This document shows, in pieces, positions 6,241 through 29,244 of a DNA stretch of 45,519 nucleotides; position 1 is the first letter of the stretch; every line of letters begins with the position of its first letter. A program made the position numbers and the translations under genes. The stretch is from contig JBAXAJ010000005.1 of assembly GCA_037142555.1 (NCBI GenBank), positions 1 through 45,519 of the forward strand, written 5' to 3'. The stretch comes from Candidatus Shapirobacteria bacterium (GTDB lineage: Bacteria; Patescibacteriota; Microgenomatia; UBA12405). The notes beneath the pieces are model-generated. The model saw nothing but the letters and a program-made list of their open reading frames with translations. It did no database searches and was not told the origin of the DNA.

Positions 6241-6276
6241 ATTGTATTTTACACTATCTATTTTAAAGCTAATATC

Positions 6277-6305
6277 TTGACTTTTGGGCTAGAAGTGATA
6301 TTATA
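6277..6305 (+). promoter_or_regulatory. Candidate promoter with an extended -10
   Basis: TTGACT (6277-6282), a 16-17-nt spacer, then TGaTATTAT (6296-6304). It would give a leader of roughly 130 nt for the gene at 6438. Confidence 0.4.
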
Positions 6306-6437
6306 GGTCAGTTTGATGATGAAAATCACTAAACTAAAGTCTTTTTAACATTCTTTAGACAATCGCGTCTAAATTAAAATATACGAAAGATGGATGTACT
6401 TTAAAATACTTTAGAAAAAAGAAAAGAGGGATTGGTT

Positions 6438-6797
6438 ATGAGTAAAAGAAATACTGTATTTACAGCAGGTGTTGTTATTGGTGTGGTTATATCTGTTATA
6501 TTTGTTCTATTAATTAATTTGAACAAAGAACCGATTGCCGCTCAATCAGGAATGACTATTCTAGTCTATGATGATAGAGCAGTGATGATTGAAAAAGGTA
6601 CTTTGGTACAGGGACATGCACAGCAATTGATAGAAGCTGATGGTCATTTCCAGAAAAAAGAAATACAAACACCATTTGTGGCTACCGAATCAATGGTAGT
6701 TCGATGTAGTTTAGAAGGCTTTGTTTGTATTTTATATGCAGATGATGTTTCTAATAGCTTTTATTACCGACAAATATCACAACAAATTCTAAAGTAA
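6438..6797 (+). CDS. Hypothetical small membrane-anchored protein
   Basis: ATG at 6438 is preceded by aagaggg with about 7-nt spacing. The track's TTG at 6432 is less likely. One N-terminal TM helix. No motif recognised. Confidence 0.5.
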   Translation: MSKRNTVFTAGVVIGVVISVIFVLLINLNKEPIAAQSGMTILVYDDRAVMIEKGTLVQGHAQQLIEADGHFQKKEIQTPFVATESMVVRCSLEGFVCILYADDVSNSFYYRQISQQILK

Positions 6798-6828
6798 TAT
6801 AAAATGACGGCTGAAAGCTAAAATGATT

Positions 6829-6853
6829 AATACCAATTGGTATTTTTTGTTTT
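6829..6853 (+). terminator. Weak candidate intrinsic terminator
   Basis: aatacc-aatt-ggtatt hairpin followed by a T-rich run (ttttgtttt). The stem is short and AT-rich. Confidence 0.35.
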
Positions 6854-6873
6854 AGTGAGTAGGTCGTTTTTTT

Positions 6874-8040
6874 TTATTTATTTTTTCTTAAAAAGGCGGG
6901 GATGTCGAATTCGTCGATGATGTCAATTCCTTCTGGAATTTCTTTATTACCGAGCATTTTTTGGATTTGACTATTATCTATAGTTTTCATTTCTTCTTCT
7001 TGAGGAGGAGCTGTAGTTTGGAAATTAGGGATGTTGGTTTGAACAGACTGTTTTTTAATTGTTTGGTATATATGAGCTCGGGTGGTGTCAAAACCAGTGG
7101 CAATTACAGAAATTTTGATTTTACCCTTGAGGTTTGGATCAATAGTGGCACCAAAAATTATGTTTGAATCTGGAGCAGTGCGTTCAGTGATGGCTCTGGC
7201 TGATTCTTCAATTTCGGCCATGGTTAGGTCTGGTCCACCAGTGATGTTGATTAAAACTCCCCTAGCCCCTTCGATGTTAACTTCAACAATTGGAGAATCG
7301 ATTGCAGATTCGACAGCGAGTCTGGCTCGACCTTCACCTTCAGCTTCACCAGTTCCCATTAGAGCTGAACCAGCGTTACTCATGATTGATTTAATGTCGG
7401 CAAAATCGAGGTTGATTAGTCCAGGAACAGTGATTAGGTCGGCAATAGCTTTAGTTCCTTTGTTTAAAACAGAATCGGCAATTTTGAAAGCTTCGAGAAG
7501 AGTGGCTTTATTATTGACTACTTCCATGACTTTTTGGTTTGGGATAACGATTAGAGTATCAACATAATCTTTAAGTTGAGAAATGCCATCTTCGGCATTA
7601 GACATTCTTCTGGTACCTTCGAATAAAAATGGTTTAGTGACAACAGCGATAGTTAAGATTCCTAGTTCTTTTTTAGCAATTTGAGCAATAATTGGAGCAG
7701 CGCCGGTGCAGGTTCCTCCACCCATGCCGCCAGTTATGAAAACCATGTCGGTGCCTTCGAGGACTTCTTTAATTCTTTCTCTTGATTCTTCAGCCGCTTT
7801 TTGACCCATTTGAGGATTACCACCAGCTCCAAGACCTTTAGTTAATTTTTCACCAATTTGAATTTTAATAGGAGCAAGAGAATTTAATAGGGCTTGTGAA
7901 TCAGTGTTAACAGCAATGAAGTCAACACCTTGGATGCTGTCTTCAGAAATCATTGAGTTAATGGCATTATTTCCACCACCACCGACTCCGATAACTTTTA
8001 TTTTGGCAAATTGACCTGTAAGAGTTTTTACTAATCCCAT
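6874..8040 (-). CDS. ftsZ: Cell division GTPase FtsZ
   Basis: GVGGGGNNAINSM, the tubulin signature region GGMGGGTCTGAAP (with an unusual Cys) and NTDSQAL. Confidence 0.92.
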   Translation of the reverse strand: MGLVKTLTGQFAKIKVIGVGGGGNNAINSMISEDSIQGVDFIAVNTDSQALLNSLAPIKIQIGEKLTKGLGAGGNPQMGQKAAEESRERIKEVLEGTDMVFITGGMGGGTCTGAAPIIAQIAKKELGILTIAVVTKPFLFEGTRRMSNAEDGISQLKDYVDTLIVIPNQKVMEVVNNKATLLEAFKIADSVLNKGTKAIADLITVPGLINLDFADIKSIMSNAGSALMGTGEAEGEGRARLAVESAIDSPIVEVNIEGARGVLINITGGPDLTMAEIEESARAITERTAPDSNIIFGATIDPNLKGKIKISVIATGFDTTRAHIYQTIKKQSVQTNIPNFQTTAPPQEEEMKTIDNSQIQKMLGNKEIPEGIDIIDEFDIPAFLRKNK

Positions 8041-8045
8041 AGCAA

Positions 8046-9293
8046 TTATGGCAACAAAGGCTCGAGTAAAGATTTAATTCGATTAACAAATCCATTCATT
8101 GATATTTTTGATTTTTTAGTAGGAGTAGAAGTTTTTTTTGTTTCTTTATTAAACATAAGAAGACCAACTGAACTAGTGTAGGCAGGATTAAGTATATCAT
8201 CAATGATGCCGCCAACTTTAGGTGGGCTGGCAATTCTTAGAGGAAGTGGAATTATTTTACTGCAAGTTTCTTTGACATTAACTGTTTGAGCTCCACCACC
8301 AGTTAGAACGATTCCAGCTGGGATTATGCGAGTGTAACCACTGTTTTCTATTTGTTCATAAATTATGGAAAATATTTCTTCAAGTCGTGGTTTAATTATG
8401 CCGTTTACGGCTGTTTGAATAGAAATTTTTCTTTTGTCTTGATCGTCAATGTCGAAATGAGAAAGTTCAACTTCATCTTCGAATTTTTTACTTTCAACCA
8501 TTTTGGTTAATTTAATTTTGACTTTTTCAGCTTCTTCAAGAGAAAAACGGAGACCAATAGCTAAATCATTTGTGACATTGTTGGCTCCAATAGGAATGAC
8601 TGAGGAATAGATCGGGGCGCCTTCATTAAAAATAGTTAGAGTAGTGACACTGCCACCAACATCAACTAGAGCAACTCCAAGTTCTTTTTCGGTTTCAGTC
8701 AAACAGGCGCTGGCGGTTGAGAGTCCAGAATAGATTAGACTTTCGATTCGGACACCAATTTCTTCAAGACATTTTTTGAGGTTTTTGATGGCTGGACTTG
8801 AGGCGATGATGATGTGGGCGTCCATTTCTAGTCTGGTGCCGTTCATGCCGATTGGGTCGATGACTCCATCTTGGCCATCAACTGTGAATTTCATTGGAAT
8901 TATGTGAAGAATTTCTTTGCCCATAGGAATAGAAACAGCTTTGGCAGCTTCAATTACTCGATCGATGTCGTTGGCGACAATTTCTCCATTTTGGCTGCTG
9001 ATAGCAACAACCCCTTGAGAATTAATGGATTCAATGTGTGGAGCAGCGATTGAGACAGTGGCGTTAATTATTTGGAAACCAGCCATTCTTTCGGCTGATT
9101 CTATACTTTGAGTTATTGTTTGAGCGGCTTGTTCAAGATTAATTATTTGACCTTTTCGGAAACCAAGAGCTGGAATTGAGGAAACAGCAATTATGTTTAA
9201 TTTATTGTCTTCATTCTCTAGAAATTGGCCAATGATAGTGGTAACTTTTGAGGTTCCAATGTCTATTCCACTAATTATCTTTGAATGTTGCAT
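8046..9293 (-). CDS. ftsA: Cell division protein FtsA
   Basis: Actin-like ATPase boxes (GIDIGTSKV, LVDVGGSVTTL, VLTGGGAQ). Directly upstream of ftsZ. Confidence 0.88.
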   Translation of the reverse strand: MQHSKIISGIDIGTSKVTTIIGQFLENEDNKLNIIAVSSIPALGFRKGQIINLEQAAQTITQSIESAERMAGFQIINATVSIAAPHIESINSQGVVAISSQNGEIVANDIDRVIEAAKAVSIPMGKEILHIIPMKFTVDGQDGVIDPIGMNGTRLEMDAHIIIASSPAIKNLKKCLEEIGVRIESLIYSGLSTASACLTETEKELGVALVDVGGSVTTLTIFNEGAPIYSSVIPIGANNVTNDLAIGLRFSLEEAEKVKIKLTKMVESKKFEDEVELSHFDIDDQDKRKISIQTAVNGIIKPRLEEIFSIIYEQIENSGYTRIIPAGIVLTGGGAQTVNVKETCSKIIPLPLRIASPPKVGGIIDDILNPAYTSSVGLLMFNKETKKTSTPTKKSKISMNGFVNRIKSLLEPLLP

Positions 9294-9337
9294 ATTAAAT
9301 TCTAACTCATTTTAGAGTTTTTTCAAAAGGAAGATTG

Positions 9338-10423
9338 TTAAATAAGTTTATTAATTAAATTTAATAGTTTTAAATTAGGTTGATAAGTGATTTTTGAAGA
9401 TGAAACTTTAAGTTTATTAAGCTTTAAAATGCCTTCTAATAGACTTTTTTTATTTAATTCTTCTTGCTGAATAATGATAGTTTTGTCAGGGAGTTGTTTT
9501 TTAACCCAAGAAGCATTAATTTTTTGTTCATCTTGTTGGCTTTTAAAAAGAGGGATTAAAATTGATGATTTTTTGAGAGCAACTATTTCTTGACTAGTGT
9601 TGGCTCCAGAACGGCTGATTAATATTTTAGAATTGGAAAAAATCCAACCAATGTCATTTGAATTGACATATTCAATTGGATAATAATTTTTATATTTTTG
9701 AGTTAATTTTTTAAATTTTGAATAATCAGTTTTGCCGGTTTGGTGGATAATAGTGAAATCTTTTAAATTTGAAAGAATTAATTTAATAGTGTCATTTATG
9801 GTTTTAGAACCTTGGTTACCAGCAGTTATATAGATGATAGGACTTTGATTTTTTTTGATTATTTTTTCAAAATATTTTGAACTTTGGTTGTAAATTTCTG
9901 AACGAAGAAGATTTCCAGTTATGACACTTTTTTCTGTTTGGTCTTTATTTTCAAAAGAAAGAGCGACTTTGTTGACAAATAAACTGTTTATTTTAGTAGT
10001 TAAACTGATGGTTGGAGTTTGTTCATGAGTGATAGATGGAATTCTTTTGAGCCAGCTGGAAATGATTACCGGGACTGAAACATAACCACCAAAAGAGGCA
10101 ACAATGTCTGGTTTGATTTTAGAAACTTGGTTATAAGCTTGAATTACACCTTTGATGGTTTGAGGAATGCCTTGAATGGTGTTTGGAAGCCATCTTCGGT
10201 CTAGTTTGCCACAAACAATTGAACTAAAATTTACTCCTAGTTTAGGAATTATCTCGGATTCAATTGAAGGAGTGGTGTCAACGCTGGAATTATATTGACG
10301 GCCAATATAATAAATTTGCCATTTTGTTTTAGAGTCTTTTTTGAGCTGAGATATTAATTCAACGGCGGGAGTGAGATGGGTGCCGGTGATGATTATTTTC
10401 TTTTGTAGATCCTTTGATTTCAC
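9338..10423 (-). CDS. murG: Lipid II synthase MurG (UDP-GlcNAc:lipid I GlcNAc transferase)
   Basis: GT28 layout: N-terminal ITGTHLTPAVEL in place of the G-loop, ITAGNQGSK, and SRSGANTSQEI. Follows ftsW, as in dcw clusters. Confidence 0.8.
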   Translation of the reverse strand: MKSKDLQKKIIITGTHLTPAVELISQLKKDSKTKWQIYYIGRQYNSSVDTTPSIESEIIPKLGVNFSSIVCGKLDRRWLPNTIQGIPQTIKGVIQAYNQVSKIKPDIVASFGGYVSVPVIISSWLKRIPSITHEQTPTISLTTKINSLFVNKVALSFENKDQTEKSVITGNLLRSEIYNQSSKYFEKIIKKNQSPIIYITAGNQGSKTINDTIKLILSNLKDFTIIHQTGKTDYSKFKKLTQKYKNYYPIEYVNSNDIGWIFSNSKILISRSGANTSQEIVALKKSSILIPLFKSQQDEQKINASWVKKQLPDKTIIIQQEELNKKSLLEGILKLNKLKVSSSKITYQPNLKLLNLINKLI

Positions 10424-11501
10424 CCTTTGAGTATATCAGTAAATGGTTCTGTTTTTCGATATTATGTACTAATCCGACAGCTGAAAGAAGAGTTAAAAGA
10501 GATGAGCCTCCATAGGAAATAAATGGCAGTGGAACTCCGGTCAAAGGAATGATGGCAACAATGGCAGAAATGTTGATTAAACTTTGATAGGCAATCCAAC
10601 AACCAACGCTGGCGACTAGTAGAGACTGGAAAGGATCGGGAATTATTTGACTTAATTTAATTAAATAAGTGATTAGATAAATATAAATTAATAAAATAAC
10701 CATAATTCCAAAAAAGCCCATTTCCTCCCCTATTACAGCGAGAATTGAATCGGTTGATATTTTAGGGAGATAACGATATTTTTGGTCTGAATTAGCAAAA
10801 CCTTTGCCGAATAAACCACCAGAAGACAGGGCTAAAATTATTTGATTACTATGATAGGAACTAGTGCTTTGTTCGGCTTGAGGGTTAAGAAGAGTTTTAA
10901 GTCTGGCGTAGCGATATGGAGAAAGGATTATTAGAAGTAAACTTAGAAATACAGCCACTCCACAAAGTTTGAATAAGGGCATGATTTCCCCACCAGAAAG
11001 ATAATAAATAGAAATAATTATGGCGGAAATGAGGATGGCAGTGCTTAGATTTGGTTCTAAAATAATTAAGGCAAAAGGAATACTTAGGTAGAAAATCAGG
11101 CTTTTTATGTTTCTTTTTTCTTTAATTGAAAATAAAAAAGAAAAATAAATAATTGAAGTGAACTTTAATATTTCTGATGGTTGAATACTAAAAATTCCTA
11201 AATTCAGCCAACGCCTGGCTCCAAGAGTTTCATTACTTAGGCCAGGAACTAAAACTAGGAGAAGAGCGATTAAAGTGGCGATGTAAATTGAAAATGAAAA
11301 TTTTTTAATAAAATCTAGTTTTATTTTTGAAGTTATGTAGAAACAAATTATGCTTAAGACAAGCCAAAGAGATTGTTTTTTAAGGAAGAAGAATTTGTCT
11401 CCCATGCTTGAACTGGCTTCAGTTAGTGAAGAGATTGAGATGAAAACTAGACCAATGGCAATTAAACTAAAGACTAAAAAAAGTAGGGGCGATTTTTTCA
11501 T
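10359..11501 (-). CDS. ftsW: SEDS-family protein, dcw-cluster copy (FtsW)
   Basis: SEDS boxes (IQPSEILKF, DSILAVIGEEMGFFG, IPLTGVPLPFISYGGSS). Start placed at MKKSPLLF (11501) rather than the track's 11549. The 3' end overlaps murG by 65 nt. Confidence 0.75.
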   Translation of the reverse strand: MKKSPLLFLVFSLIAIGLVFISISSLTEASSSMGDKFFFLKKQSLWLVLSIICFYITSKIKLDFIKKFSFSIYIATLIALLLVLVPGLSNETLGARRWLNLGIFSIQPSEILKFTSIIYFSFLFSIKEKRNIKSLIFYLSIPFALIILEPNLSTAILISAIIISIYYLSGGEIMPLFKLCGVAVFLSLLLIILSPYRYARLKTLLNPQAEQSTSSYHSNQIILALSSGGLFGKGFANSDQKYRYLPKISTDSILAVIGEEMGFFGIMVILLIYIYLITYLIKLSQIIPDPFQSLLVASVGCWIAYQSLINISAIVAIIPLTGVPLPFISYGGSSLLTLLSAVGLVHNIEKQNHLLIYSKGEIKGSTKENNHHRHPSHSRR

Positions 11502-12594
11502 AATCAATTTTAACAGGATTAGTGTCTTTAGAAAAAACAGAAAAATCATTAAACTTTTTGATAGTTAAATTATTTTCGTCTTTTTTGACAATTTCTGAAC
11601 CAATTAGGTTTTGATTATAAAAACGATTTTGTTCACTTTCTATATCAATTTGGTAATCAAGATTTAAAAATTCAGCCAAGTGGAAATAGAAGAGTGGAGT
11701 TAAATTTTGGTTTAATTCAATTTGAGTGTAAAAAGCAAAAGAAGCGGTTAGGCGAGGATTACATTCTAGAAGATAGACTTGATCTTGACTGACAAAAAAA
11801 TCGAGACCAAAAAAGCCTTTATAATTTAGTCTTTTTAAAATATCACCAAAATTATTAGTTATTGATTTAACTTTTTCTTGTAAATCTTCTGAAATATTGG
11901 CTGGCCATTGACGACCAACCGTGGCAAAAGGATTGTCAGTCAATTCGATTAAGCCAGTGTATTGGAGAGCAGGTGGACTTTGGATTAGACCACTTTTGGT
12001 TAAGCAACAATTGTTAAGCAGAGAAAATCCTTCTAAAAATGGAGAAAACTTGACGAGAGTGTTTGGAGCTATTTTAGATTCAATGTTTGGCCAATTATTA
12101 GAATCAAAAGTGCTGTTCCCTGCCCAACCAAAATGAGTTTGAACAACTAGATGATTATTGTAAAGTTGTTGATATTTAAGAAAATTTTCTTGGGTGAAAG
12201 AGTCTATTGATGATGGAATTGCTGGCAGATTAAATTGAGTGCAGATTTCACTAAATTTGATTTTATCTTCTAAAAATCTATTTAGAGAACCAGGATTATT
12301 GATGTTAACCCAAGAATTTTTTTTGCATAAAAAATCGATTTTGCTTGATGCCTTGAAAGAAATTATGGCTGGAGTGCGATTGTTTTCTTTAGATTTCTTA
12401 GAAATATAATCGATTACTTTTGGGTCAGATAGAAGTTTCCCACTGTTTTTTATTTTAACTGATGGATAATCAGAAAGATAAATTTTTTGGAAATTATTGA
12501 GTTGAGGGAGGTCAATGTCTAGAAGTTCATCGACAACTAAAAAATAGAAATCGAATGGACTTTGGTTTAGAAGATTTTCTAGATTAGAATTCAT
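11467..12594 (-). CDS. ATP-grasp superfamily ligase, specificity unknown, not a canonical Ddl
   Basis: LEDKIKFSEICTQFNLPAIP, then a central domain, then GFFGLDFFVSQDQVYLLECNPRLT (ATP-grasp Mg/ATP loop). The Ddl signatures I know (e.g. GEDG..Q) were not seen. Confidence 0.65.
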   Translation of the reverse strand: MNSNLENLLNQSPFDFYFLVVDELLDIDLPQLNNFQKIYLSDYPSVKIKNSGKLLSDPKVIDYISKKSKENNRTPAIISFKASSKIDFLCKKNSWVNINNPGSLNRFLEDKIKFSEICTQFNLPAIPSSIDSFTQENFLKYQQLYNNHLVVQTHFGWAGNSTFDSNNWPNIESKIAPNTLVKFSPFLEGFSLLNNCCLTKSGLIQSPPALQYTGLIELTDNPFATVGRQWPANISEDLQEKVKSITNNFGDILKRLNYKGFFGLDFFVSQDQVYLLECNPRLTASFAFYTQIELNQNLTPLFYFHLAEFLNLDYQIDIESEQNRFYNQNLIGSEIVKKDENNLTIKKFNDFSVFSKDTNPVKIDYEKIAPTFFSL

Positions 12595-13355
12595 CTTTTA
12601 GCTCCAGTTAATAAAATGACAGGATGTTGACCACAGTCGATATTATTTTTGATTGCTTTGTAATAACCAGCAAGAGCTAGGGCACTTTCGTTGGATGTTT
12701 GAATATTATTTTTTTCTAAAAATTTTTGAGAAGAAATTATGTCTTCATTTTGGATAATTAGTTCTGAACCATTAGAATCTTTGACAGCAGAAATGACTCT
12801 ATTTTTTAGAGGTTGAAATTTAACAGTTAAAGCATCGGTTAGGGTTGTGTCTTTTGGTTTGACTGAAAAAACTTTTACATTTGAAAGGGCTTGGGAAATG
12901 CCAAGAAGAGTGGTGCCACTGCCCACTGGAACGAAGATACTGGTGATTTGAGGACATTGTTCTAATAATTCTCTACCAATTGCTTGATAGCCGATTAGAG
13001 CGGTTGGGTCAGTTGATTGACGGAGATAATAAGCATTATTTTTTTTGGCAAATTTAAAAGCATCACTGATTGGTTTTAAAGAAAATTGGACTTGATCAAT
13101 TTGTGATTTGATTTCTTTTAGTTTTTGAGGATCAATTTTTGGTGATAAGAAAACAGTTAGATCAATGTTGTTTAGTTTGCAAAAATGAATAGCAGAGATG
13201 GCAGCATTGCCAGTGCTGGAAATTACTGCTTTGGTGAAACCCTCTTTAATTAAATTTTGGACTTGGACAGAAATGGCTCTATCTTTGGCAGATCCGGTTT
13301 CATTTAAGTCTTCTCTTTTTAGATATATATTGTCTAGTTTGATTAGTGGAGTCAT
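12591..13355 (-). CDS. Minimal fold-type II PLP-dependent enzyme (threonine synthase / cysteine synthase-like), 254 aa
   Basis: REDLNETGSAKDRA (PLP-lysine box), SSTGNAAIS, PVGSGTT and a C-terminal LLTGAKR, as in the Trp-synthase-beta superfamily. Shorter than typical members. Confidence 0.65.
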   Translation of the reverse strand: MTPLIKLDNIYLKREDLNETGSAKDRAISVQVQNLIKEGFTKAVISSTGNAAISAIHFCKLNNIDLTVFLSPKIDPQKLKEIKSQIDQVQFSLKPISDAFKFAKKNNAYYLRQSTDPTALIGYQAIGRELLEQCPQITSIFVPVGSGTTLLGISQALSNVKVFSVKPKDTTLTDALTVKFQPLKNRVISAVKDSNGSELIIQNEDIISSQKFLEKNNIQTSNESALALAGYYKAIKNNIDCGQHPVILLTGAKR

Positions 13356-13364
13356 TGTTATAAT
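13356..13364 (+). promoter_or_regulatory. Extended -10 element (TGtTATAAT) 7 nt upstream of the LysW-like ATG
   Basis: Exact TGnTATAAT at 13356-13364, ATG at 13372, no SD sequence. Spacing fits a leaderless transcript. Confidence 0.35.
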
Positions 13365-13371
13365 ATATTAT

Positions 13372-13539
13372 ATGACAGAAGACAATAAAAAAATACTTTG
13401 TCCTGATTGTGGGGCAGAAATAATTAAAACTGAAGAGATGATGGTTGGAGATATCGTTGAGTGTCAAGAATGTGGCACTGAGGTTGAAATTTTATCTCTC
13501 GAGCCATTGCAATATCGAGAATTAGTTGAGGAAAAGTAA
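13372..13539 (+). CDS. LysW/ArgW-like amino-group carrier protein (zinc ribbon, 55 aa)
   Basis: MTEDNKKILCPDCGAEIIKTEEMMVGDIVECQECGTEVEILSLEPLQYRELVEEK. It is collinear with Thermus LysW as I remember it (CPECGAEL...GELVVCEDCGAELEV..L.PLRLEP..EE). The track ORF 13198-13539 has an implausible N-terminal extension antisense to the PLP gene. Confidence 0.6.
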   Translation: MTEDNKKILCPDCGAEIIKTEEMMVGDIVECQECGTEVEILSLEPLQYRELVEEK

Positions 13540-14073
13540 TCTCCAGAAACCTTGATGGATGAAGTTTTTGTCGGTGAGATCGGCTTGACCATATTTGACT
13601 CCCCTGCCGGAGAGAGAGCTGTCAACATATTCTATGATGTTTCCATTTTTTTCGATAATAAATAAAACATGATGACCATTTTTTTGTCTGGCTAAATCAC
13701 CTGTTTTAATTTCAGTTGCTTTTATTTCTTTTGAGAGTGGTTTTGAAGTGAGCATGTTGGCTGAGTTTTTTCGAGGATTTAGATTAGTCCCAAGATAAAA
13801 ATTTAAAAGTTGGCAAACAAGACCAGAACAATCAATTCCAATATTATTTTTTTTCTGGAAATTATAGATTTCTTGGGGAGATAAAGATAATAACTTTATA
13901 TTTTTATCGTTGGCTATTTCAATAGTTTTTAGGGCTATTTCTTTGGCACTACCTTTGCCTCCTAGAATTTTTTCTTTGATTATTTTGCCGTTCTTGAGAA
14001 GATTTTTACTATATGGCAAACCAATATAGTGTTTAATTTCTTCTTTAAGTTCTATTAATTTAGTCCCAACCAT
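13522..14073 (-). CDS. NlpC/P60 family cysteine peptidase (gamma-D-glutamyl amidase type), no signal peptide
   Basis: GIDCSGLVCQL (catalytic Cys), IKTGDLA, GHHVLFII (His). Start taken at MVGTKL (14073). The N-terminus is hydrophilic. Confidence 0.7.
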   Translation of the reverse strand: MVGTKLIELKEEIKHYIGLPYSKNLLKNGKIIKEKILGGKGSAKEIALKTIEIANDKNIKLLSLSPQEIYNFQKKNNIGIDCSGLVCQLLNFYLGTNLNPRKNSANMLTSKPLSKEIKATEIKTGDLARQKNGHHVLFIIEKNGNIIEYVDSSLSGRGVKYGQADLTDKNFIHQGFWRLLFLN

Positions 14074-15089
14074 AGTCCAAATATAGCTAATATTATTCCA
14101 GCTAGCCAAGCTCGAGTTACAATTTTTGGTTCTTCCCAACCAATCTTTTGAAGAGTTAAGTGAAGTGGAGCAGCAGGAAAAACTTTTTTATTAAAATATT
14201 TTTTACTAATGATTTGAATAGCACTACTCATTCCTTCTATGATGAATGGAGCTCCAATAATTAATAGTGGAACTACTTTCCCAAGAAGCAGAGCGATGAC
14301 AGCAATGGTGGCTCCAAAAGATAAAGATCCAACATCACCTAGCCAAATTCTGGCTGGAAAAATGTTGAAGTATAAAAAGGCAATTAGGGAACCAATCCAA
14401 AGAGCCAAGAAGACTGAAATAGGAGTGTCGAGGGAACTGTTTGATATGAACCAAAAAGCAAAAAGACAAATCATTAGAAGACCACAAGAAAGGCCATCTA
14501 ATCCATCTGTGATGTTAAAAAAATTGGAAAAGCCAGTTATCAAGAGAACAGAAATTGGGATATAAAAAATGCCTAAATTGACTGCTCCTAGGAATGGAAT
14601 GTAAATAAAATCTATTCCTAAACTGAAGAAAATGTAGCTGGAAATTAGACCAGCAATGATTAATTGAAGAATTAGTTTATGAACCATTTTTAAGCCAAAA
14701 AAGCCAGTTGTTTTGAAATTAAAAAACTTATGGATATCATCATAAAGTCCAAGTAATCCAAAACTAATGAAGGTAAAAAAGATGACTATTAATTCTTTAT
14801 TTATTTGATAATTTGACGAAATGAAGATATTGGAAAATTTTAAAACTGGGAAAAGAATAGCAAAAAGAATGCAGACGGCTACTATAATTAATAGTCCTCC
14901 ACCAACTGGAGTTCCTGTTTTTTGTTCATGAAATTTATCAAAAATCGGAGTTCTTTTGTTTTGAAAATCTAGAGTTTTTTGTTTTTGACGTTGGAATTTT
15001 AGTTTATAGAGAAGATCAATGAAAGGAACGACGAGAATGCTTGTAAGTAAGAAAGAAACTAAAAGTAGACCTAAATATAAGTGAGTCAT
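14055..15089 (-). CDS. mraY: Phospho-MurNAc-pentapeptide translocase
   Basis: Polytopic protein. NITDGLDGL box, a C-terminal PLHLTLQKIGW region (canonical HHHFE box not obvious), GT4-polyprenyl-phosphate transferase layout. Confidence 0.88.
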   Translation of the reverse strand: MTHLYLGLLLVSFLLTSILVVPFIDLLYKLKFQRQKQKTLDFQNKRTPIFDKFHEQKTGTPVGGGLLIIVAVCILFAILFPVLKFSNIFISSNYQINKELIVIFFTFISFGLLGLYDDIHKFFNFKTTGFFGLKMVHKLILQLIIAGLISSYIFFSLGIDFIYIPFLGAVNLGIFYIPISVLLITGFSNFFNITDGLDGLSCGLLMICLFAFWFISNSSLDTPISVFLALWIGSLIAFLYFNIFPARIWLGDVGSLSFGATIAVIALLLGKVVPLLIIGAPFIIEGMSSAIQIISKKYFNKKVFPAAPLHLTLQKIGWEEPKIVTRAWLAGIILAIFGLWLGLN

Positions 15090-15092: not shown

Positions 15093-16421
15093 TTATGTTT
15101 TTATATATTCTATATTAGCACCTAAAGAACAAAGACGTTCTGCGAGTTTTTCATAACCTCTTTCGATATATTCAACTCCATCGATAATGGATTTACCATT
15201 AGCGGTTAGAGCGGCTAGGGTTATTGAGGCGCCTGATCTTAAATCATTAATAGAGAAAGAAGCTGGTTTGAGTTTAGCTGGTCCATAGATTTTGACTCCA
15301 TGGAAATATTTTTCATCATCACTTTCTTTATTAAATTCATAAAAAGTTTCAGGATCCTCGACTTTTGGATTGAAGAAAGTAATTTTGGCTCCCATTTTTT
15401 TGAGATCATTAATATGTTGAAAACGATTTGGGTAAACTCTTTCGATGATTGAACTGCAACCAACTGTTTGAGTTAAAACTAAACTGAAAATTGCTTGCCA
15501 GTCGGTCATGAAGCCTGGTTCTGGTCCTGTTTCGATATTAATACTAGTTAGAGGCTTGACCCATTCGACACAAATTTCATCGTTACCAGTTTTGATTTCA
15601 GCACCCATTTTTTTGATGGTTTCTAAAAATGTTTTAACAATGTCTGGTTGTATTCTTAGAATACAAATAGAACCTTTGGTGGCAAGAGCGGCACAAGCAA
15701 AAGTTATTATTTCATTTCGATCACAAATTACACTGTGTTCTGTACCATTTAATTTAGAAACACCTTGAATGGTGATTCTTTTAGGATTATTAATGTCTCT
15801 TTGAATTTTGGCACCCATGCTGTTTAACATCAAAATGAGGTCATCAATTTCTGGTTCCATGGCAGCATTGTCAAGAATGGTTTCACCAATAGTTAGGGCT
15901 GCTGTCATTATAATAACTTCAGTTATGGTGTGGGTTGGTTTTGGGAAAGTGTAGTGAGTTGGTTTAATTCCAGTAGTTTTAAAAATTATGTTGCCATTTG
16001 TTTCTTCTGTAGTTATGTTCATTTGAGAAAAACAGTCAAAAAGTCGATCTAGAGGTCTGGCTCCAAGTTTGTCTCCACCAGGAATTGGGATTGTGGCATT
16101 GCCAGTTCTTAATAGAAGTGGAGCGGCAAACATAAAAGAAGCTCGAGATTTTTCACCAGTTCCACTTGGAACAATGGAGTTAGTTATTTTAGGAGTGGTT
16201 AATTCAAGACAATGATCACCTTTTTGTTTAACTTTACAACCAAGACTTTTAGCGATACTAGTGGTTATTTTTACGTCTGAAATTTGAGGAACGTTGTTCA
16301 AATTAACAGTTTCCTCAGTCAACATCGAGGCAATTATCTGTTTAAAACTGGCATTTTTTGCTCCACGAATGGAAACTTCACCTTTTAATGGTTTTCCTCC
16401 AGTGATTATATATCTAGACAT
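15093..16421 (-). CDS. murA: UDP-GlcNAc 1-carboxyvinyltransferase
   Basis: ITGGKPLKGEVSIRGAKNA start. The active-site loop reads IPGGDKLGARPLD, with Asp where E. coli has Cys115. Confidence 0.88.
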   Translation of the reverse strand: MSRYIITGGKPLKGEVSIRGAKNASFKQIIASMLTEETVNLNNVPQISDVKITTSIAKSLGCKVKQKGDHCLELTTPKITNSIVPSGTGEKSRASFMFAAPLLLRTGNATIPIPGGDKLGARPLDRLFDCFSQMNITTEETNGNIIFKTTGIKPTHYTFPKPTHTITEVIIMTAALTIGETILDNAAMEPEIDDLILMLNSMGAKIQRDINNPKRITIQGVSKLNGTEHSVICDRNEIITFACAALATKGSICILRIQPDIVKTFLETIKKMGAEIKTGNDEICVEWVKPLTSINIETGPEPGFMTDWQAIFSLVLTQTVGCSSIIERVYPNRFQHINDLKKMGAKITFFNPKVEDPETFYEFNKESDDEKYFHGVKIYGPAKLKPASFSINDLRSGASITLAALTANGKSIIDGVEYIERGYEKLAERLCSLGANIEYIKT

Positions 16422-17706
16422 ATTTGATTATTTTTTTAAAAGTTTTTTGACTGGATAGGCCACCAGAGCTCATATAAATAAGGATATCATTTCCAACTAA
16501 TGATTGTTGATAGTGTTTGATAATGTCTTGTTCAGTTGGTAAATATATCAATTTAGATCCAATTTCTTTTTTGAAATCAGAAGCACTGACACGATCTTCT
16601 TTGCTTATATCTTTGTTGAATTTAATTTGGCCTAGGACAATTTCAACAGCTCCATTGAAAGCATCTTTAAGCCCAATTAAGCTGTCTTTATATTGTAAAA
16701 ATGAAGCATGAGGGAGATAGAATACTTTAATTTTTCTTTTTGGATATTTTAATTTAAGAGCTTCTATGGTTGATTTAATTCTTGGAGCTGATTGAGCAAA
16801 ATCATCAAAAAATAAAATATTGTTGGAATCAGCGACTAGTTCGAGACGTCGTTTGACACCTTTAAAAGTGGCCACAGCTTTGTCAATTATTTTTTTATTT
16901 ATGCCTAATTCTTGGCATAAAGTGATGGCTGCTAATTTGTTTTCATAATCATAATTACCGTCTGTTTGAGTTTCGTAGGTAACTATTCTGGCTTTAGTTA
17001 ATTTTGAAAGTTCTTGAGTTTTAAAACCAAGTTTATTAATTACTAAAAGTCCATTTTTTGGTAGATTAGAAACTAATTTTTTGAAAGCATTAAAATTTTC
17101 TGATTCTGATTTATAAGAATCTTTGTGCTCCCATTGAGCGCTGGTTAAAATTAGATATTTTGCGGGATAATATAAAAATTTGGCTTGGGTGTCTAGACCA
17201 TTAATTGATTCATCGGCTTCGATTATTGACCAGTCGGATTTGGTTATGTCTAGAGAATCAAATTTATTTAAGCTTTGACCACCAAACATATAACTTGGGT
17301 TTAGATTAGCTTTTTTAAATATCCAAACAAGTAGACTAGTAATAGTTGTTTTCCCATATGATCCAGCAACTAAAATTGGATTGTTTTTACTGACATACTT
17401 GGCGATATATTCTGTGGCAGAAATATATTTTATTTTTAATTTTTTGATTTGTTCAAATTCAGTTCTGGTTTTTTCAAAAGAATTATAAGAAGATCCAATT
17501 ATAGCCAAATCAATATTTTTATTAATGTTGGTATTATTAATTTTAATTTTGGCGCTATTTAGAGTGGTGCTAATCGGTGGGTAAATTTTGTCTTGGTCAG
17601 AACCAGTTATTTGATGACCTTCTTTTTTAAGAGCAACAGCTAGTGCTGCTGTCATAGTCCCAGCTATTCCAATTATGTGTATTTTCATATTTATAAAGTA
17701 GTCCAA
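16414..17706 (-). CDS. mpl: Mur ligase of the Mpl type (UDP-MurNAc:L-Ala-gamma-D-Glu-diamino acid ligase-like); could also act as MurC
   Basis: Collinear with E. coli Mpl from memory: MKIHIIGIAGT...GHQITGSD, IYPPISTTL (Mpl VYPPMSTLL), GSYGKTT, IIEADE, KRRLELV, FFDDFAQS, and the C-terminal ILIYMSSGG (Mpl ILVMSNGGF). Confidence 0.65.
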   Translation of the reverse strand: MDYFINMKIHIIGIAGTMTAALAVALKKEGHQITGSDQDKIYPPISTTLNSAKIKINNTNINKNIDLAIIGSSYNSFEKTRTEFEQIKKLKIKYISATEYIAKYVSKNNPILVAGSYGKTTITSLLVWIFKKANLNPSYMFGGQSLNKFDSLDITKSDWSIIEADESINGLDTQAKFLYYPAKYLILTSAQWEHKDSYKSESENFNAFKKLVSNLPKNGLLVINKLGFKTQELSKLTKARIVTYETQTDGNYDYENKLAAITLCQELGINKKIIDKAVATFKGVKRRLELVADSNNILFFDDFAQSAPRIKSTIEALKLKYPKRKIKVFYLPHASFLQYKDSLIGLKDAFNGAVEIVLGQIKFNKDISKEDRVSASDFKKEIGSKLIYLPTEQDIIKHYQQSLVGNDILIYMSSGGLSSQKTFKKIIKYV

Positions 17707-18281
17707 CTATTATTATTGAAATATTCGAAACCTGGCATGTTTCTTTTGTAATAACCATTTTCTTTTGAAAAACGACCGAGGTATGAATATTTGAGATTTT
17801 CTGATTGACTGTCGATTATTACTTGAAGAACTAATCTGATTGGAAGATTCCCATGACTATATTCAGGATCGTAAAAGACATAAGCAACATGGCTAATTTC
17901 TGGAGAAAAATAACAAAGAGTATAGGCGATTATTTTATTTTCTTCATTTTTCCAAACATAAACATAATTAAAAATATGATTTGTAAAAATTGTTTTTACT
18001 GAACTTGTTGGGAAATCCCATTCTAATTTTTTAATCCAAGAACTTATTTCTTTTTGGATTTGAGGAGTGTATTCAAATTGGTTTAGAGCTATTTTTTGAA
18101 AAGTGAAATTTTCTGTTTTTCTTAAAATACGACGATTTTCTGAACTAATTTCAGAAAAAGACAGATTGGAACGACAACTTGATTCTTGGTAGAAAAGATC
18201 TTTATCATTTCTTTGAGGTAAAAAACCAAGTTGGTAATTTTGATCGATAGTGTTTGAATTTTTTATATTGAATTGAGACAT
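17691..18281 (-). CDS. Arginyl/leucyl-tRNA-protein transferase (ATE/Bpt)-like protein, reduced form (196 aa)
   Basis: LGFLPQR...FSEISSENRRILRK resembles the ATE_N end. SHVAYVFYDPEYSHGNLPIRLVL...YSYLGRFSKENGYYKRNMPGFEYF..NSW resembles ATE_C (SA.Y.F.DP....LG...YLGY......M.YK..F.P.E). The N-terminal Cys cluster is absent. Confidence 0.55.
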   Translation of the reverse strand: MSQFNIKNSNTIDQNYQLGFLPQRNDKDLFYQESSCRSNLSFSEISSENRRILRKTENFTFQKIALNQFEYTPQIQKEISSWIKKLEWDFPTSSVKTIFTNHIFNYVYVWKNEENKIIAYTLCYFSPEISHVAYVFYDPEYSHGNLPIRLVLQVIIDSQSENLKYSYLGRFSKENGYYKRNMPGFEYFNNNSWTTL

Positions 18282-19510
18282 TAGTTTATGTTTTTATATC
18301 TAAAAGCGGTTCTGTAGGCTTCTGCTTCTGACCAAGGGTATTCGGTTTTTCCATGGAGAATTGATGTTTCATGACCTTTCCCACAAGCGATGATAGTGTC
18401 CCCTGTTTCAGCTAGTTTTATAGCTAAATTGAAGGCATCTTGTCGGTTAGGAATGTCAAAATATTTAAACTTTGGTCTTTTAACAATTCCACTGATTATT
18501 TGTTGATTAATATCTTCAACTTTTTCATCTCGAGTGTCATCAGCGGTGATTATAGCGATGTTGGCATTTTCAGAAACAACCTTTCCCATTATTGGTCTTT
18601 TAGATTTATCTCTGCCGCCAGTGGCACCAAAAATAATAATGATTTTACCAGTGGTGTTTTTCTTTAAAGATAATAGAGTGCTTTCAAGTGCAGCTGGAGT
18701 GTGAGCAAAATCAATTAAAGTTTTAAATTTAAAATCATTTGGAAATTCTTCAGTTCGGCCTTTAATTTTTGGAAAAACTTTGACAGTTTGGATTAATATA
18801 TTTGGATCAATATTGAGTTTGTCGATGATAGCAAAAGTGAGAAGAATATTATAAATTTGATAATAATAATTACTGTCAGTTATAATTTTGAGTTTTTTGA
18901 CTTTAAATTCAATATTTTTTTTGTCTATTTTTATTTTAGTGGCGTGGTAGTTTGATTTTGAATCGATTCCATAGCTGATGACTGTTTTATTAATTTCTTT
19001 TTTAATTTTATTAAATGAATCATCGTCTTTATTTAAAATTACAGTTTTAGCGGCTTTGAAAAGTTTAGTTTTAGCACTGATGTAGGTGTCTAGATCACGG
19101 AAATAATCTAGATGTTCGTGAGAAATATTGGTCAATCCGGCTATTTCGAATTTACAACCAAAATATCTAAATTGATCAATAGCATGTGCGGTAACTTCTA
19201 GAACAACATGAGTCACTTTTTCTTTGACCATTTGACGTAATAGTTTTTGGATTACGATTGGGTCCGGAGAAGTCATATGGAGTTGGGTGTTATATTCGCT
19301 ATCACCTATCTTGGCTCCAATAGTAGAAATCAGACCAGCTTTGATGCCTGAATTAGTTAAAACATGATGAATTAAATTGCAGGTTGTAGTTTTACCGTCA
19401 GTTCCAGTGACACCAATTAAAATTAGTTTTCTTGCTGGAAAACCATATATTAAACTCAATAAAAAATTTTTTGGTAAATGCCAAAGGATATTTTTCAGTT
19501 TTTGTATCAT
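18281..19510 (-). CDS. murE: MurE-like Mur ligase with a short N-terminus (409 aa)
   Basis: GVTGTDGKTTT P-loop at residues ~34-44, HEHLDYF, DFAHTPAALESTL, GATGGRDKSKRPIMG, ADDTRDE (in place of DNPR), GKGHE. Confidence 0.75.
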   Translation of the reverse strand: MIQKLKNILWHLPKNFLLSLIYGFPARKLILIGVTGTDGKTTTCNLIHHVLTNSGIKAGLISTIGAKIGDSEYNTQLHMTSPDPIVIQKLLRQMVKEKVTHVVLEVTAHAIDQFRYFGCKFEIAGLTNISHEHLDYFRDLDTYISAKTKLFKAAKTVILNKDDDSFNKIKKEINKTVISYGIDSKSNYHATKIKIDKKNIEFKVKKLKIITDSNYYYQIYNILLTFAIIDKLNIDPNILIQTVKVFPKIKGRTEEFPNDFKFKTLIDFAHTPAALESTLLSLKKNTTGKIIIIFGATGGRDKSKRPIMGKVVSENANIAIITADDTRDEKVEDINQQIISGIVKRPKFKYFDIPNRQDAFNLAIKLAETGDTIIACGKGHETSILHGKTEYPWSEAEAYRTAFRYKNIN

Positions 19511-22247: not shown

Positions 22248-22961
22248 CTATTGGATTAAGTAATCACCAACTAGAGAATTAGTGTTTTCTTTAGTGACAG
22301 TGTTTGGAGTGATGGAATTGATTTTTCCAGCTCCAGTGCCGTTAGAAAAAACGGAATAAACTGACTTTAAATTTTTAATTAAAACGAAGAAATCACTTTT
22401 GGTAGTGGTAGTGGCGCTAATAGCTAAATTTTCAGTTGGAAGAGCTAGACCCTTAATTTTAATGTCAGCTGAAGAAGTTAGAGCAAAAGAACTATTAAAG
22501 CTTACTTGACCATCTTTAGTGTTGAAATTTAAAGTTAAAGTTCCCCCAGTTATACCCTCATCATAGGCATATTTACAACCATTAGTGCAGCTTTCAGTTC
22601 CTAGAAGAAGATCTTTTTCGACAGTTTTAGTTACGTTTTTGACAGTGTCACCTACTCCTTTTTCCATTTCTAGTTTAGTAGTTTTATCGACAGCGGTGTA
22701 GATTAGTTCATATTCAATGCTGGTAACAGATGATGGGATATTTTCTATCTTTAGTTTTAACATGTGACCATCAGTTCGAGGAGTTAGACTGATATATGGT
22801 TTTTCTGTTTCGCTAAATTCAATTGTTTTAGTTGAAACATTATTATTTATTGGACTATTATTGACGGTCTTTGTTTTTTTATTAAATAAAGCAAAGATAA
22901 CTACAATAATTAATATTATTGCAATGACAGCGATGTAAATGATGTTTTTATTTGTTTTCAT
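22248..22961 (-). CDS. Hypothetical bitopic membrane protein with a ~200-aa extracytoplasmic beta-rich domain
   Basis: One N-terminal TM helix. Ser/Thr/Asn-rich domain with no recognised motif. Tightly coupled to glyQS (14-nt overlap) and rsmH (adjacent). Confidence 0.5.
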   Translation of the reverse strand: MKTNKNIIYIAVIAIILIIVVIFALFNKKTKTVNNSPINNNVSTKTIEFSETEKPYISLTPRTDGHMLKLKIENIPSSVTSIEYELIYTAVDKTTKLEMEKGVGDTVKNVTKTVEKDLLLGTESCTNGCKYAYDEGITGGTLTLNFNTKDGQVSFNSSFALTSSADIKIKGLALPTENLAISATTTTKSDFFVLIKNLKSVYSVFSNGTGAGKINSITPNTVTKENTNSLVGDYLIQ

Positions 22962-24319: not shown

Positions 24320-24673
24320 ATGAAACTAATAAAATCAGAAAGTAAAGAATGGCTGCAAAAAGAAGGTTATAGCAAGAAGATTTATTTAAATGAAAATGAT
24401 TTAAATATTAAAGGCGGATTAGTTCAAAAACTGTTGGTAAAATCTGGAGAAACTGCTCAAGAACATCATCATGAAAAACAAACAGAAATATTTTATTTTT
24501 TGAATGAGAATGGATACTTTATAGTTAATGGAGAAAAAGTAGAGGTGAAAATTGATGATGTTTTAGTAGTGGAACCATTTGATATCCATACAGCGGTGAA
24601 TAAAACAGGGAAAGATTTTTCTTATATGGCTTTTAAATTTAATTACGAAGAGAGTGATTTGATTTGGGATTAG
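24320..24673 (+). CDS. Cupin-domain protein
   Basis: HHHEKQTEIFYFL...G....V.G and a later FDIHTAVN, typical of two-motif cupin_2. Confidence 0.65.
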   Translation: MKLIKSESKEWLQKEGYSKKIYLNENDLNIKGGLVQKLLVKSGETAQEHHHEKQTEIFYFLNENGYFIVNGEKVEVKIDDVLVVEPFDIHTAVNKTGKDFSYMAFKFNYEESDLIWD

Positions 24674-24674: not shown

Positions 24675-24700
24675 TTCTCTTAGTTTAAGAGAATTAATTT
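24675..24700 (+). terminator. Hairpin between convergent genes; candidate terminator for the cupin gene
   Basis: ttctctta-gtt-taagagaa (8-bp stem) followed by ttaattt. Confidence 0.45.
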
Positions 24701-28590: not shown

Positions 28591-29244
28591 TTACCAGCGT
28601 GACAACATCGCCATTGGGGTTTTAATAATTATTTTAATTTCTTGAATAATAGATCTATTGTGAATGTAATGACAATCTAACCTAGCTCTTTGTTCGAAAG
28701 TTAATTCATTACGACCTGAGGTTTGCCAGAGCCCAGTTATTCCTGGTTTGACTGATCTTATTTGTTTGATTTGATCTTTGGTTTGAGGATATTTTTCTTC
28801 ATATTCTTGTAGTTCTTCTTCTCTGTAGGCTCTTGGCCCGATTAAACTCATGTCTCCTTTAAGAACATTAATTAATTGAGGGAATTCATCTATAGTTAAA
28901 GACCTGATTATTTTTCCAACAGGAGTTATTCTTGGATCTTCTGACATTGGTAGTTTCCAACCAGCATCTTTATATTTTTTCCATAATTCTGGATAGTTAT
29001 CTTTTAATCTTTTATCATTATCCCCTATGTACATTGATCTGAATTTGTACATCAAAAATTGTTTACTATTTTTACCGACTCTTTTTTGTCTAAATAAAAC
29101 TGGTCCAGGAGATGATTGTTTAATGATAATAGCGGTTACGATCATTATTGGAAGGAAAAGAATTAAGAGGAATAGAGATCCAAATAAATCGATGCTTCTT
29201 TTAAATAAATCGAATGGTATGTTTCTTATTTCTTTGTTTGTCAT
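28591..29244 (-). CDS. Small monotopic phosphoglycosyl transferase (bacterial sugar transferase, PglC/WbaP C-terminal type)
   Basis: KRSIDLFGSLFLLILFLPIMIV, PGPVLFRQKRVGKN, MYKFRSM, DEFPQLINVLKGDMSLIGPR. Confidence 0.8.
   Translation of the reverse strand: MTNKEIRNIPFDLFKRSIDLFGSLFLLILFLPIMIVTAIIIKQSSPGPVLFRQKRVGKNSKQFLMYKFRSMYIGDNDKRLKDNYPELWKKYKDAGWKLPMSEDPRITPVGKIIRSLTIDEFPQLINVLKGDMSLIGPRAYREEELQEYEEKYPQTKDQIKQIRSVKPGITGLWQTSGRNELTFEQRARLDCHYIHNRSIIQEIKIIIKTPMAMLSRW

Follow-up and report, generated by a model that had tools for sequence, protein, structure and literature searches.

An apparently undescribed lysine-tailed branch of the LysW family in peptidoglycan-precursor gene clusters of Microgenomates

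A 45,519-nt stretch of DNA (the window) from Candidatus Shapirobacteria bacterium, i.e. positions 1 to 45,519 of contig JBAXAJ010000005.1, was found to contain at 13372-13539, on the plus strand, a genuine and strongly conserved gene encoding a 55-amino acid (aa) protein. Judged by its sequence, this small protein has the LysW fold but is not the LysW of lysine biosynthesis. It belongs to an apparently undescribed branch of the LysW carrier family, ending in lysine (K-tailed) and spread across Microgenomates, which are ultra-small bacteria (Shapirobacteria, Gottesmanbacteria and others). The gene is part of a module embedded in peptidoglycan-precursor clusters, placed here in the mraY-ftsW interval and in Gottesmanbacteria-type loci beside a MurD-like ligase. 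Our preferred, although tentative, reading is that the protein acts as an amino-acid carrier of reversed polarity, its terminal Lys holding an amino acid for pyridoxal phosphate (PLP) chemistry. The features of the gene are as follows:

13372-13539, plus strand: coding sequence (CDS) of the small gene, a 55-aa zinc-ribbon protein of LysW fold; stop codon at 13537-13539
13399-13410, plus strand: first zinc knuckle, C10-P-D-C13; C10 and C13 invariant in the orthologue alignment
13462-13473, plus strand: second zinc knuckle, C31-Q-E-C34; C31 and C34 invariant
13507-13536, plus strand: C-terminal arm of ten residues, L46 to K55 (LQYRELVEEK), in which E53 and the last residue, K55, are invariant

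The gene had been proposed in an earlier reading of the same DNA, made from the sequence alone (the sequence-only reading), as the last part of a 113-aa ORF (13198-13539) whose first 58 codons were regarded as noise. This ORF is present in the ORF listing of the window, and the Met59 codon lies at 13372 and yields exactly the quoted 55-aa product, MTEDNKKILCPDCGAEIIKTEEMMVGDIVECQECGTEVEILSLEPLQYRELVEEK. The start coordinate given at that time, 13356, is the first base of the TGTTATAAT box and not of the CDS. Most orthologous loci have in-frame stop codons 1-25 codons before the Met, which identifies the 113-codon form as noise.

Orthologues were compared in 76 Shapirobacteria loci, i.e. 71 obtained in a scan with one genome per species, four fetched before it and the window itself. 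The reading frame is intact in all of them. Variation among the orthologues falls mostly on third codon positions (positional entropy over the last 30 codons: 0.52 bits at the first, 0.24 at the second and 1.33 at the third codon position), and synonymous codons are used freely at invariant residues (E53: GAG 33 times and GAA 34 times; K55: AAA 33 times and AAG 34 times), which indicates purifying selection at the protein level in the plus-strand frame. The conservation by codon position, together with the in-frame stops before the Met in orthologues, rules out a spurious ORF or a wrong start. The small protein shares 56-81% identity with its orthologues, as compared with approximately 45-70% for the neighbouring PLP enzyme (PALP) or ATP-grasp ligase; the values for MraY are similar to those of the small protein.

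The gene was thought to be hidden and easily missed, or called with a wrong start, by automated annotation, which proved not to be the case. An identical protein (P0001) is already in the public collection, called on a 57-kb contig, and a search of this collection revealed 107 relatives, almost all of 50-59 residues. Several Candidatus Shapirobacteria orthologues carry the NCBI or JGI name “lysine biosynthesis protein LysW”, and this naming is probably wrong. Many records bearing this Shapirobacteria-type cell-wall locus (L005, L009, L010, L012 and approximately 30 more) are titled “uncultured Gammaproteobacteria bacterium”, and one is titled “Candidatus Methanoperedens sp.”; such titles are probably wrong or placeholders.

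The LysW-like identity suggested by the sequence-only reading is borne out by four kinds of comparison. The protein matches Pfam Zn_ribbon_LysW (PF21344) with 43.4 bits (gathering cut-off 27), and phmmer against the PDB finds the LysW chains of Thermus and Thermococcus with E-values of 3.5e-8 (3wwl_A) and 3.5e-7. Alignment of the family profile with that of canonical LysW (hhalign) gives a probability of 99.3%, the homology ending at residue 53. The AlphaFold model (pLDDT 81) was compared with the PDB using Foldseek, and the top six matches are all LysW (TM 0.64-0.70, rmsd approximately 2 Å), with no other significant match. The two CxxC knuckles are present as described, and all four cysteines are invariant in orthologues. 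With a pI of 4.09 and a net charge of -10 over 55 residues, the protein is the most acidic product encoded in the window. It fails, however, the curated equivalog cut-offs for LysW (TIGR01206, 42.4 against 53.2; NF041070, 33.2 against 75), and no LysX, LysZ, LysY, LysJ or LysK partners were found in the window or within 7-8 kb on each side of the gene in approximately 100 loci. In the same scan three canonical loci (L077, L079 and L080) were recognized, in which the tail is EDWGE and LysX lies directly downstream.

The feature that sets the branch apart is its C-terminus. The tail of the window protein is ELVEEK and not of the EDWGE type, as had been noted. Its non-canonical character has stood, but it is not the oddity of one protein: it is the invariant signature of a large subfamily. 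The ending E-[E/Q/T]-K is shared by all Shapirobacteria relatives. When 1.8 billion representative proteins were searched exhaustively with a profile, 869 relatives were obtained. The best 150 of these, and also a subsequent search, include many proteins of other lineages, among them Candidatus Microgenomates and Gottesmanbacteria, that end in ...EEEK or ...EEK. Of the small relatives collected (319 in total), 209 have K as their last residue, in an E-x-K or E/D-K ending in 206 cases, and they form a class apart from the 49 with a W-G-E-type end. The length of the arm differs as well. Counted from the conserved Pro to the C-terminus, it comprises 10 residues in 189 of the 198 E-x-K or EK proteins in which it was measured, as against 15 residues in 43 of the 48 measured LysW proteins of the W-G-E (EDWGE) type. 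Conservation of the tail within the K-ended family is highest at the terminal Lys; the third residue from the end is mostly Glu and the penultimate one varies (E, Q, T or D). Such an arm, fixed in length and closed by an invariant residue, suggests a tail that enters an active site.

These data do not agree with an attachment site at the terminal or penultimate Glu as in LysW, which the sequence-only reading had implied. The two glutamates, numbered E52/E53 in that reading, are in fact E53 and E54. The residues conserved in all orthologues are E53 and the terminal Lys, whereas E54 varies, and the enzymes LysX, LysZ, LysY, LysJ and LysK are missing nearby. Conservation of the tail merely through the 3′ overlap with the convergent gene was considered and rejected, since loci lacking the overlap conserve the tail just as well and its codons vary synonymously. 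One lineage encodes a tandem, two-domain K-tailed protein of 103 aa (P0231; L087, 7001-7312). The family contains other forms too, i.e. many relatives of 120-140 aa with two tandem LysW-like zinc ribbons and basic or mixed tails (P0251, P0253-P0255, P0264, P0275 and others) and relatives whose long poly-acidic tails lack W-G-E. Both seem to represent additional uncharacterised branches of the LysW family.

The small gene is accompanied by genes encoding three enzymes:

12591-13355, minus strand: PALP, a threonine-synthase-like PLP enzyme of fold type II, 254 aa; divergent, 16 nt from the small gene
11467-12594, minus strand: ATP-grasp ligase, 375 aa, PRK06524-like and not LysX/RimK-like (Pfam ATP-grasp_3)
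13522-14073, minus strand: NlpC/P60-like cysteine hydrolase, 183 aa from the ATG at 14073; the ORF runs on to a TTG at 14139

The 75 Shapirobacteria loci all share one gene order: murG, ftsW, ATP-grasp and PALP (minus strand), the small gene (plus strand), and the NlpC/P60-like gene, mraY and murA (minus strand). In six samples of other lineages the small gene again lies head-to-head with a PALP gene, and this arrangement holds for every examined locus that reaches that far. The ATP-grasp-like (438-455 aa) and NlpC/P60-like (232-261 aa) proteins of the other lineages are orthologous to those of the window (phmmer E-values of 1e-61 to 6e-27 and 1e-16 to 2e-10, respectively). Gottesmanbacteria-type loci were collected in a metagenome scan with a narrow family alignment; of the 22 loci, 18 extend far enough on the PALP side, and these have the order NlpC-like gene, MurD-like gene, small gene, PALP and ATP-grasp, the last pushed away by inserted genes in two of the 18. 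Further neighbours in other-lineage loci are mraY and genes for a MurF-like ligase, FemAB and Ddl. The gene order and orthology across lineages thus define a conserved unit consisting of the small protein, the PLP enzyme, the ATP-grasp ligase and the cysteine hydrolase.

The interval between mraY and ftsW is a slot usually held by MurD. No MurD-like gene was seen in the window, and only one of the 75 Shapirobacteria loci had one within 8 kb. The possibility that the module replaces MurD was considered, but this is not general, as the Gottesmanbacteria-type loci hold a MurD-like gene inside the module. A MurB or Ddl gene was detected neither in the window nor, within 8 kb, in the 75 Shapirobacteria loci, and MurF-like matches were found in 11 of these loci and not in the window. 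In a lineage represented by L084, a 995-aa protein with no Pfam or NCBIfam match (7161-10148, minus strand) converges on the small gene and overlaps its 3′ end.

Judging from their conserved catalytic residues and motifs, all three partner enzymes look active. The PLP enzyme belongs to Pfam PALP (1.2e-37); its best NCBIfam matches are threonine synthases, all below the cut-offs, and it shows weaker similarity to SbnA, Ser/Thr dehydratases and Ser/Asp racemases. It lacks the N-terminal region of approximately 60 residues of the threonine synthase models (the match begins at position 64 of 347). At least 97% of 90 orthologues keep K24 (the PLP lysine), S46/S47/G49/N50 of the Asn loop and S146/G147 of the phosphate loop. 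The pI of the enzyme is 9.3 (basic).

The ATP-grasp ligase matches NF005096 at 1.6e-34, which is below the cut-off, and its E277-x-N279 motif is invariant in orthologues, which come after PALP in other Microgenomates lineages. The closest folds to its AlphaFold2 model (pLDDT 93) are biotin carboxylase, PurK and PurT (TM approximately 0.6, 13% identity); LysX and RimK are absent from the best 50 fold matches, where a peptide ligase appears only at rank 47. A sequence search of the PDB gave no match, and only close Shapirobacteria orthologues are among the 120 homologue matches listed, which provides no functional lead. We considered that PALP and the ATP-grasp ligase might stand in for alanine racemase and D-Ala-D-Ala ligase. 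This idea is weakened by locus L085, which carries a canonical Ddl in the same cluster, so the ATP-grasp enzyme is not simply a D-Ala-D-Ala ligase. At L087 the ATP-grasp region beside PALP (4187-5434) is a 32% tblastn match called only as small ORFs, and it may be a pseudogene.

The NlpC/P60-like protein passes the Pfam NLPC_P60 cut-off (25.4 bits against 23), and C82 and H135 are invariant in the orthologue alignment. Its profile gives only marginal matches in the PDB, to Spr/MepS, at the catalytic motifs. Orthologues are present in all sampled lineages. No signal peptide is apparent on inspection, and the hydrolase looks cytoplasmic.

Compared with LysW/ArgW of Thermus thermophilus, Sulfolobus and Thermococcus (3wwl, 3vpb and 5k2m), the small protein has the same zinc-ribbon fold (37-48% identity to the two closest), a strongly acidic character, a length of approximately 55 aa, a flexible C-terminal arm and an ATP-grasp gene nearby. 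It differs in the arm, which is five residues shorter and ends in E-x-K instead of EDWGE, and in the reactive group at its end: the terminal Lys bears an amine, whereas in LysW the gamma-carboxyl of the terminal Glu bears the cargo. Its partners are a threonine-synthase-like PLP enzyme, a non-RimK ATP-grasp ligase and an NlpC/P60 hydrolase instead of LysX, LysZ, LysY, LysJ and LysK, and its setting is peptidoglycan synthesis in bacteria of the candidate phyla radiation (CPR). Recruitment of the LysW family beyond lysine and arginine biosynthesis has a precedent in the amino-group carrier proteins of Streptomyces secondary metabolism (the DADH and vazabitide-type pathways). To our knowledge, those carriers keep an acidic, Glu-ended tail and partners of the LysX/LysZ/LysY type, unlike the small protein described here.

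According to the reversed-polarity hypothesis, the ATP-grasp ligase would activate the carboxylate of a free amino acid as an acyl phosphate and join it to the epsilon-amine of Lys55 or, less likely, extend the alpha-carboxylate of this residue. The PLP enzyme could then act on the tethered amino acid via its still-free alpha-amino group, by racemisation or beta-replacement. Finally, the NlpC/P60 hydrolase would cut the isopeptide bond, passing the product to the cell-wall precursor pathway and regenerating the carrier. The most specific candidate product is D-glutamate for the MurD step, a candidate suggested by the association with MurD. Among schemes using all four conserved parts and the invariant terminal Lys, this one is the simplest.

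The scheme draws on the established chemistry of the respective families. ATP-grasp enzymes join a carboxylate and an amine via an acyl phosphate, and papain-like NlpC/P60 and CHAP hydrolases undo such amides, which are typically gamma-glutamyl (gamma-D-glutamyl in the case of NlpC/P60). PLP enzymes require a free alpha-amine, which fits tethering through a carboxylate and not, as in LysW, through the amine. The D-aspartate ligase Asl(fm) of Enterococcus faecium works with a racemase and uses a lysine epsilon-amine as acceptor. Going by its general description, it resembles the proposed system in combining an ATP-grasp enzyme with an amino-acid racemase in cell-wall synthesis and in its Lys epsilon-amine acceptor, but it involves no carrier protein, the acceptor being a nucleotide precursor, and its racemase is PLP-independent.

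Pairs of an ATP-grasp ligase and a papain-like amidase that make and break one amide are exemplified by glutathionylspermidine synthetase/amidase and by tubulin tyrosine ligase with vasohibin. RimK (PMC10375531), acting on ribosomal protein S6, belongs to the same group. As in these ligase/hydrolase pairs, an ATP-grasp enzyme is encoded here with a cysteine hydrolase, and the acidic C-terminal tail (...EE-X) has a genetically encoded last residue; the substrate proteins are unrelated, however, and those systems contain no PLP enzyme. In scaffold-peptide biosynthesis of the pearlin type, a ribosomal peptide reportedly receives an amino acid at its C-terminus, where this residue is then modified (10.1101/2024.03.12.584671). 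The two systems are alike in performing chemistry on the C-terminal residue of a small gene-encoded protein, followed by proteolytic release (proposed in our case). They differ in that tRNA-dependent LanB-like ligases and unstructured peptides are employed there, and a folded zinc ribbon and an ATP-grasp enzyme here.

Several observations weigh against the reversed-polarity carrier. All of its mechanistic steps are inferred from gene neighbourhood and family chemistry. The PLP enzyme is nearest to threonine synthases and has an S-T-G-N loop, without the S-S-G-N of fold-type II racemases, which fits a phospho-ester substrate at least as well as racemisation; its threonine-synthase-like character fits beta-replacement equally well. 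The ATP-grasp ligase is acidic overall (pI 5.3), with no obvious whole-protein charge complementarity to the small protein. Moreover, L087 keeps the small gene and PALP while its ATP-grasp looks degraded, so the tightest partnership may be with the PLP enzyme alone.

The last point leads to a different reading, which we regard as rather unlikely but deserving serious attention: the small protein may bind non-covalently, as a zinc-ribbon subunit or regulator, to the PLP enzyme or to a complex of the PLP and ATP-grasp enzymes. Its acidic globule would dock on the enzyme and the Lys-carboxylate tail would act as a pseudo-substrate in an active or allosteric site, with no covalent chemistry on the tail. 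The PLP enzyme is the most invariant neighbour, always head-to-head with the small gene, and at L087 the pair persists without an intact ATP-grasp gene. The N-terminal region of approximately 60 residues that the PLP enzyme lacks could be replaced by a separate small partner, and the pI values of the enzyme and the small protein (9.3 versus 4.1) are opposite. However, a fixed arm with an invariant last residue is more typical of a processed or reactive tail, and a mere subunit role would leave the conserved ligase and hydrolase without a common substrate.

In another scenario, which seems unlikely to us, the encoded terminal Lys is itself the cargo, in the manner of scaffold peptides or of tubulin tyrosination. 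It would be modified on the scaffold, for example through beta-replacement or acylation at its epsilon-amine, to a diamino-dicarboxylic acid resembling diaminopimelic acid (DAP) and then cut off by the NlpC/P60 hydrolase, and the remaining ...EE end would be recharged with Lys by the ATP-grasp ligase. This is consistent with an invariant terminal Lys behind a variable penultimate residue (E, Q, T or D). The Arg of the DNPR motif in DAP-adding MurE binds the distal carboxylate, and the MurE-like ligase encoded in the window retains the Arg of its DDTR at that position. ATP-grasp enzymes such as RimK and tubulin tyrosine ligase add residues to acidic C-termini. Building small molecules at the C-terminal end of ribosomal scaffold peptides is reported to be an established paradigm (10.1101/2024.03.12.584671). 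Each turnover would nevertheless need two hypothetical activities, a peptidase specific for an alpha-peptide bond and a Lys-specific ligase. Furthermore, no homologue among those collected ends in ...EE without Lys, hence the uncharged form is never encoded.

The position of the gene raises the question of its expression, for which the following features are relevant:

13356-13364, plus strand: probable small-gene promoter, an extended -10-like box (TGTTATAAT) whose end is 7 nt ahead of the ATG
13367-13372, minus strand: perfect TATAAT overlapping the first base of the small-gene ATG and ending 11 nt before the PALP start codon
6874-8040: ftsZ, lower boundary of the region in which all other credible genes are on the minus strand
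22948-24285: class II aminoacyl-tRNA synthetase gene (termed glyQS in the sequence-only reading), upper boundary of that region

The extended -10 box lies exactly where it had been placed. Although TGNTATAAT is not enriched in the window (4 found, 3.4 expected), an exact TATAAT occurs no more than 60 nt upstream of the gene in 62 of 76 distinct orthologous upstream regions, as against a background of 3.5% of 60-nt windows in this sequence, which supports the promoter claimed directly upstream. The box takes the form CATATAAT, overlapping the PALP start codon, in 46 upstream regions. Its distance to the ATG is bimodal, i.e. 3-13 nt in 13 loci, including the window, and 25-40 nt in most. The starts of PALP and the small gene are separated by a 16-nt spacer, CAT-TGTTATAATATATTAT-ATG (13353-13374), with one -10 box in each direction, and the minus-strand TATAAT is a possible promoter of PALP.

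The lack of a Shine-Dalgarno (SD) sequence had been taken as a sign of a leaderless mRNA, an argument that finds no support. An SD-like motif precedes only 3 of the 43 window genes, and its absence from the small gene is uninformative since SD sequences are nearly unused genome-wide; moreover, the box is 25-40 nt from the ATG in most orthologues. Going by the spacing in the window, a leaderless mRNA of the small gene is plausible here, but it is not a family trait. TATAAT-like boxes are also located 4-11 nt before the ATG of several other window genes (e.g. 22948-24285, 24320-24673, 2057-2368 and 18281-19510), a pattern that suggests widespread SD-independent initiation, perhaps with leaderless transcripts, in this organism.

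The gene map confirms that the small gene is antisense to its surroundings and that no other credible plus-strand gene lies between ftsZ and the aminoacyl-tRNA synthetase gene. The 18-nt 3′ overlap reported earlier is present as well, as the convergent NlpC/P60-like ORF (13522-14139) shares 13522-13539 with the small gene. Besides coding for a protein, a fixed antisense position might have a regulatory role: pairing of the mRNA with a read-through minus-strand transcript, or collision of polymerases, would couple the expression of the small protein and the enzymes. Such regulation, which we consider improbable, is compatible with all the other readings. Over 100 loci of different lineages all keep this orientation despite different convergent partners (NlpC-like here, MurD-like in Gottesmanbacteria-type loci), the 3′ ends frequently overlap, and the -10 boxes stand back-to-back within the 16-nt spacer. 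A simple and insensitive scan found no terminator-like site in 12400-14400. The orientation has perhaps just been frozen by tight operon packing.

Two readings have little in their favour. Graspetide ATP-grasp enzymes are reported to form Glu-Lys lactams (PMC8939145), and the two invariant tail residues of the small protein, E53 and K55, could be linked by such a side-chain lactam through the adjacently encoded ATP-grasp enzyme, or the protein could be the precursor of a ribosomally made, post-translationally modified peptide (RiPP). We find this very hard to reconcile with a conserved, globular zinc-binding domain encoded in a housekeeping cell-wall cluster of a reduced genome, with no leader/core organisation, with a single E-x-K motif rather than several cross-link sites and with an ATP-grasp fold nearest to carboxylase and PurK types, and it would leave the PLP enzyme without a role. 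The weakest reading, that of a canonical LysW/ArgW amino-group carrier for lysine or arginine biosynthesis, has on its side the homologous globular domain and the names given by NCBI and JGI, but it is scarcely credible and already contradicted on two defining features. The protein scores below both equivalog cut-offs, lacks the EDWGE tail with its terminal Glu as well as five residues of the arm, and has neighbours other than the Lys enzymes in approximately 100 loci, including an ATP-grasp ligase that is not RimK/LysX-like.

The surrounding cell-wall genes show further peculiarities. The product of 16414-17706 (minus strand) is a Mur ligase scoring 217 bits for MurC (cut-off 335) and 164 bits for Mpl (cut-off 389), which places it between the two without reaching either threshold. 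The MurE-like ligase (18281-19510, minus strand; 409 aa, 406-433 aa in related loci) matches MurE models from approximately position 94; it is devoid of the N-terminal nucleotide-binding domain, with no upstream room for one, and has DDTR where DAP-adding MurE has DNPR. Between these two Mur ligases, also in loci L001, L003 and L004 of Shapirobacteria, there is a gene (17691-18281, minus strand) for a 196-aa protein similar to arginyl/leucyl-tRNA-protein transferases (Pfam ATE_C), which could be a tRNA-dependent side-chain transferase like FemX.

Outside the cell-wall genes, a probable cluster for a surface polysaccharide (28591-42919, minus strand) comprises a long run of glycosyltransferase genes (GT1, GT2 and GT4) accompanied by genes for a Wzy-like protein, a sugar transferase and a nucleotidyl transferase. 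Upstream of it are a DUF4012 gene (26617-28560) and genes for proteins without an assigned family (22248-22961 and 24694-26040). The segment of approximately 630 nt between a 942-aa gene and ftsZ (6241-6873) contains only a 121-codon ORF with a TTG start (6432-6797, plus strand). No tRNAs or Rfam families were identified in this segment or elsewhere in the window, and PADLOC gave no meaningful match to a defence system.

Searches of the literature on LysW, Patescibacteria, threonine synthase, CPR peptidoglycan and glutamate racemase found no description of the K-tailed subfamily; two seemingly relevant “LysW” matches were discarded, one being an unrelated lysine transporter and the other a note on LysZ. 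Apart from the LysW family, no protein-based carriers of amino groups are known in primary metabolism. If the reversed-polarity hypothesis is true, a branch with Lys as the reactive end, another arm length and new partner enzymes would extend the carrier-protein concept. We can also imagine, with little confidence, that the K-tailed class constitutes a “carboxyl-group carrier”, with ATP-grasp tethering of an amino acid to the Lys epsilon-amine by its side-chain or alpha-carboxylate, PLP conversion and selective isopeptidase release by NlpC/P60 forming a hitherto unknown ATP-driven route to a building block of Microgenomates peptidoglycan. Candidates for this building block are D-glutamate, to be used by MurD, and a DAP-like diamino acid, to be used by the unusual MurE. 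As the proteins are small and soluble, the carrier hypothesis is directly testable.

The finding also has consequences for metabolic reconstructions, in which the name “lysine biosynthesis protein LysW” would wrongly credit reduced genomes with part of a lysine pathway. Little is known about the peptidoglycan chemistry of Microgenomates or about where they obtain D-amino acids and diamino acids, and the module described here points to a missing step of wall synthesis.

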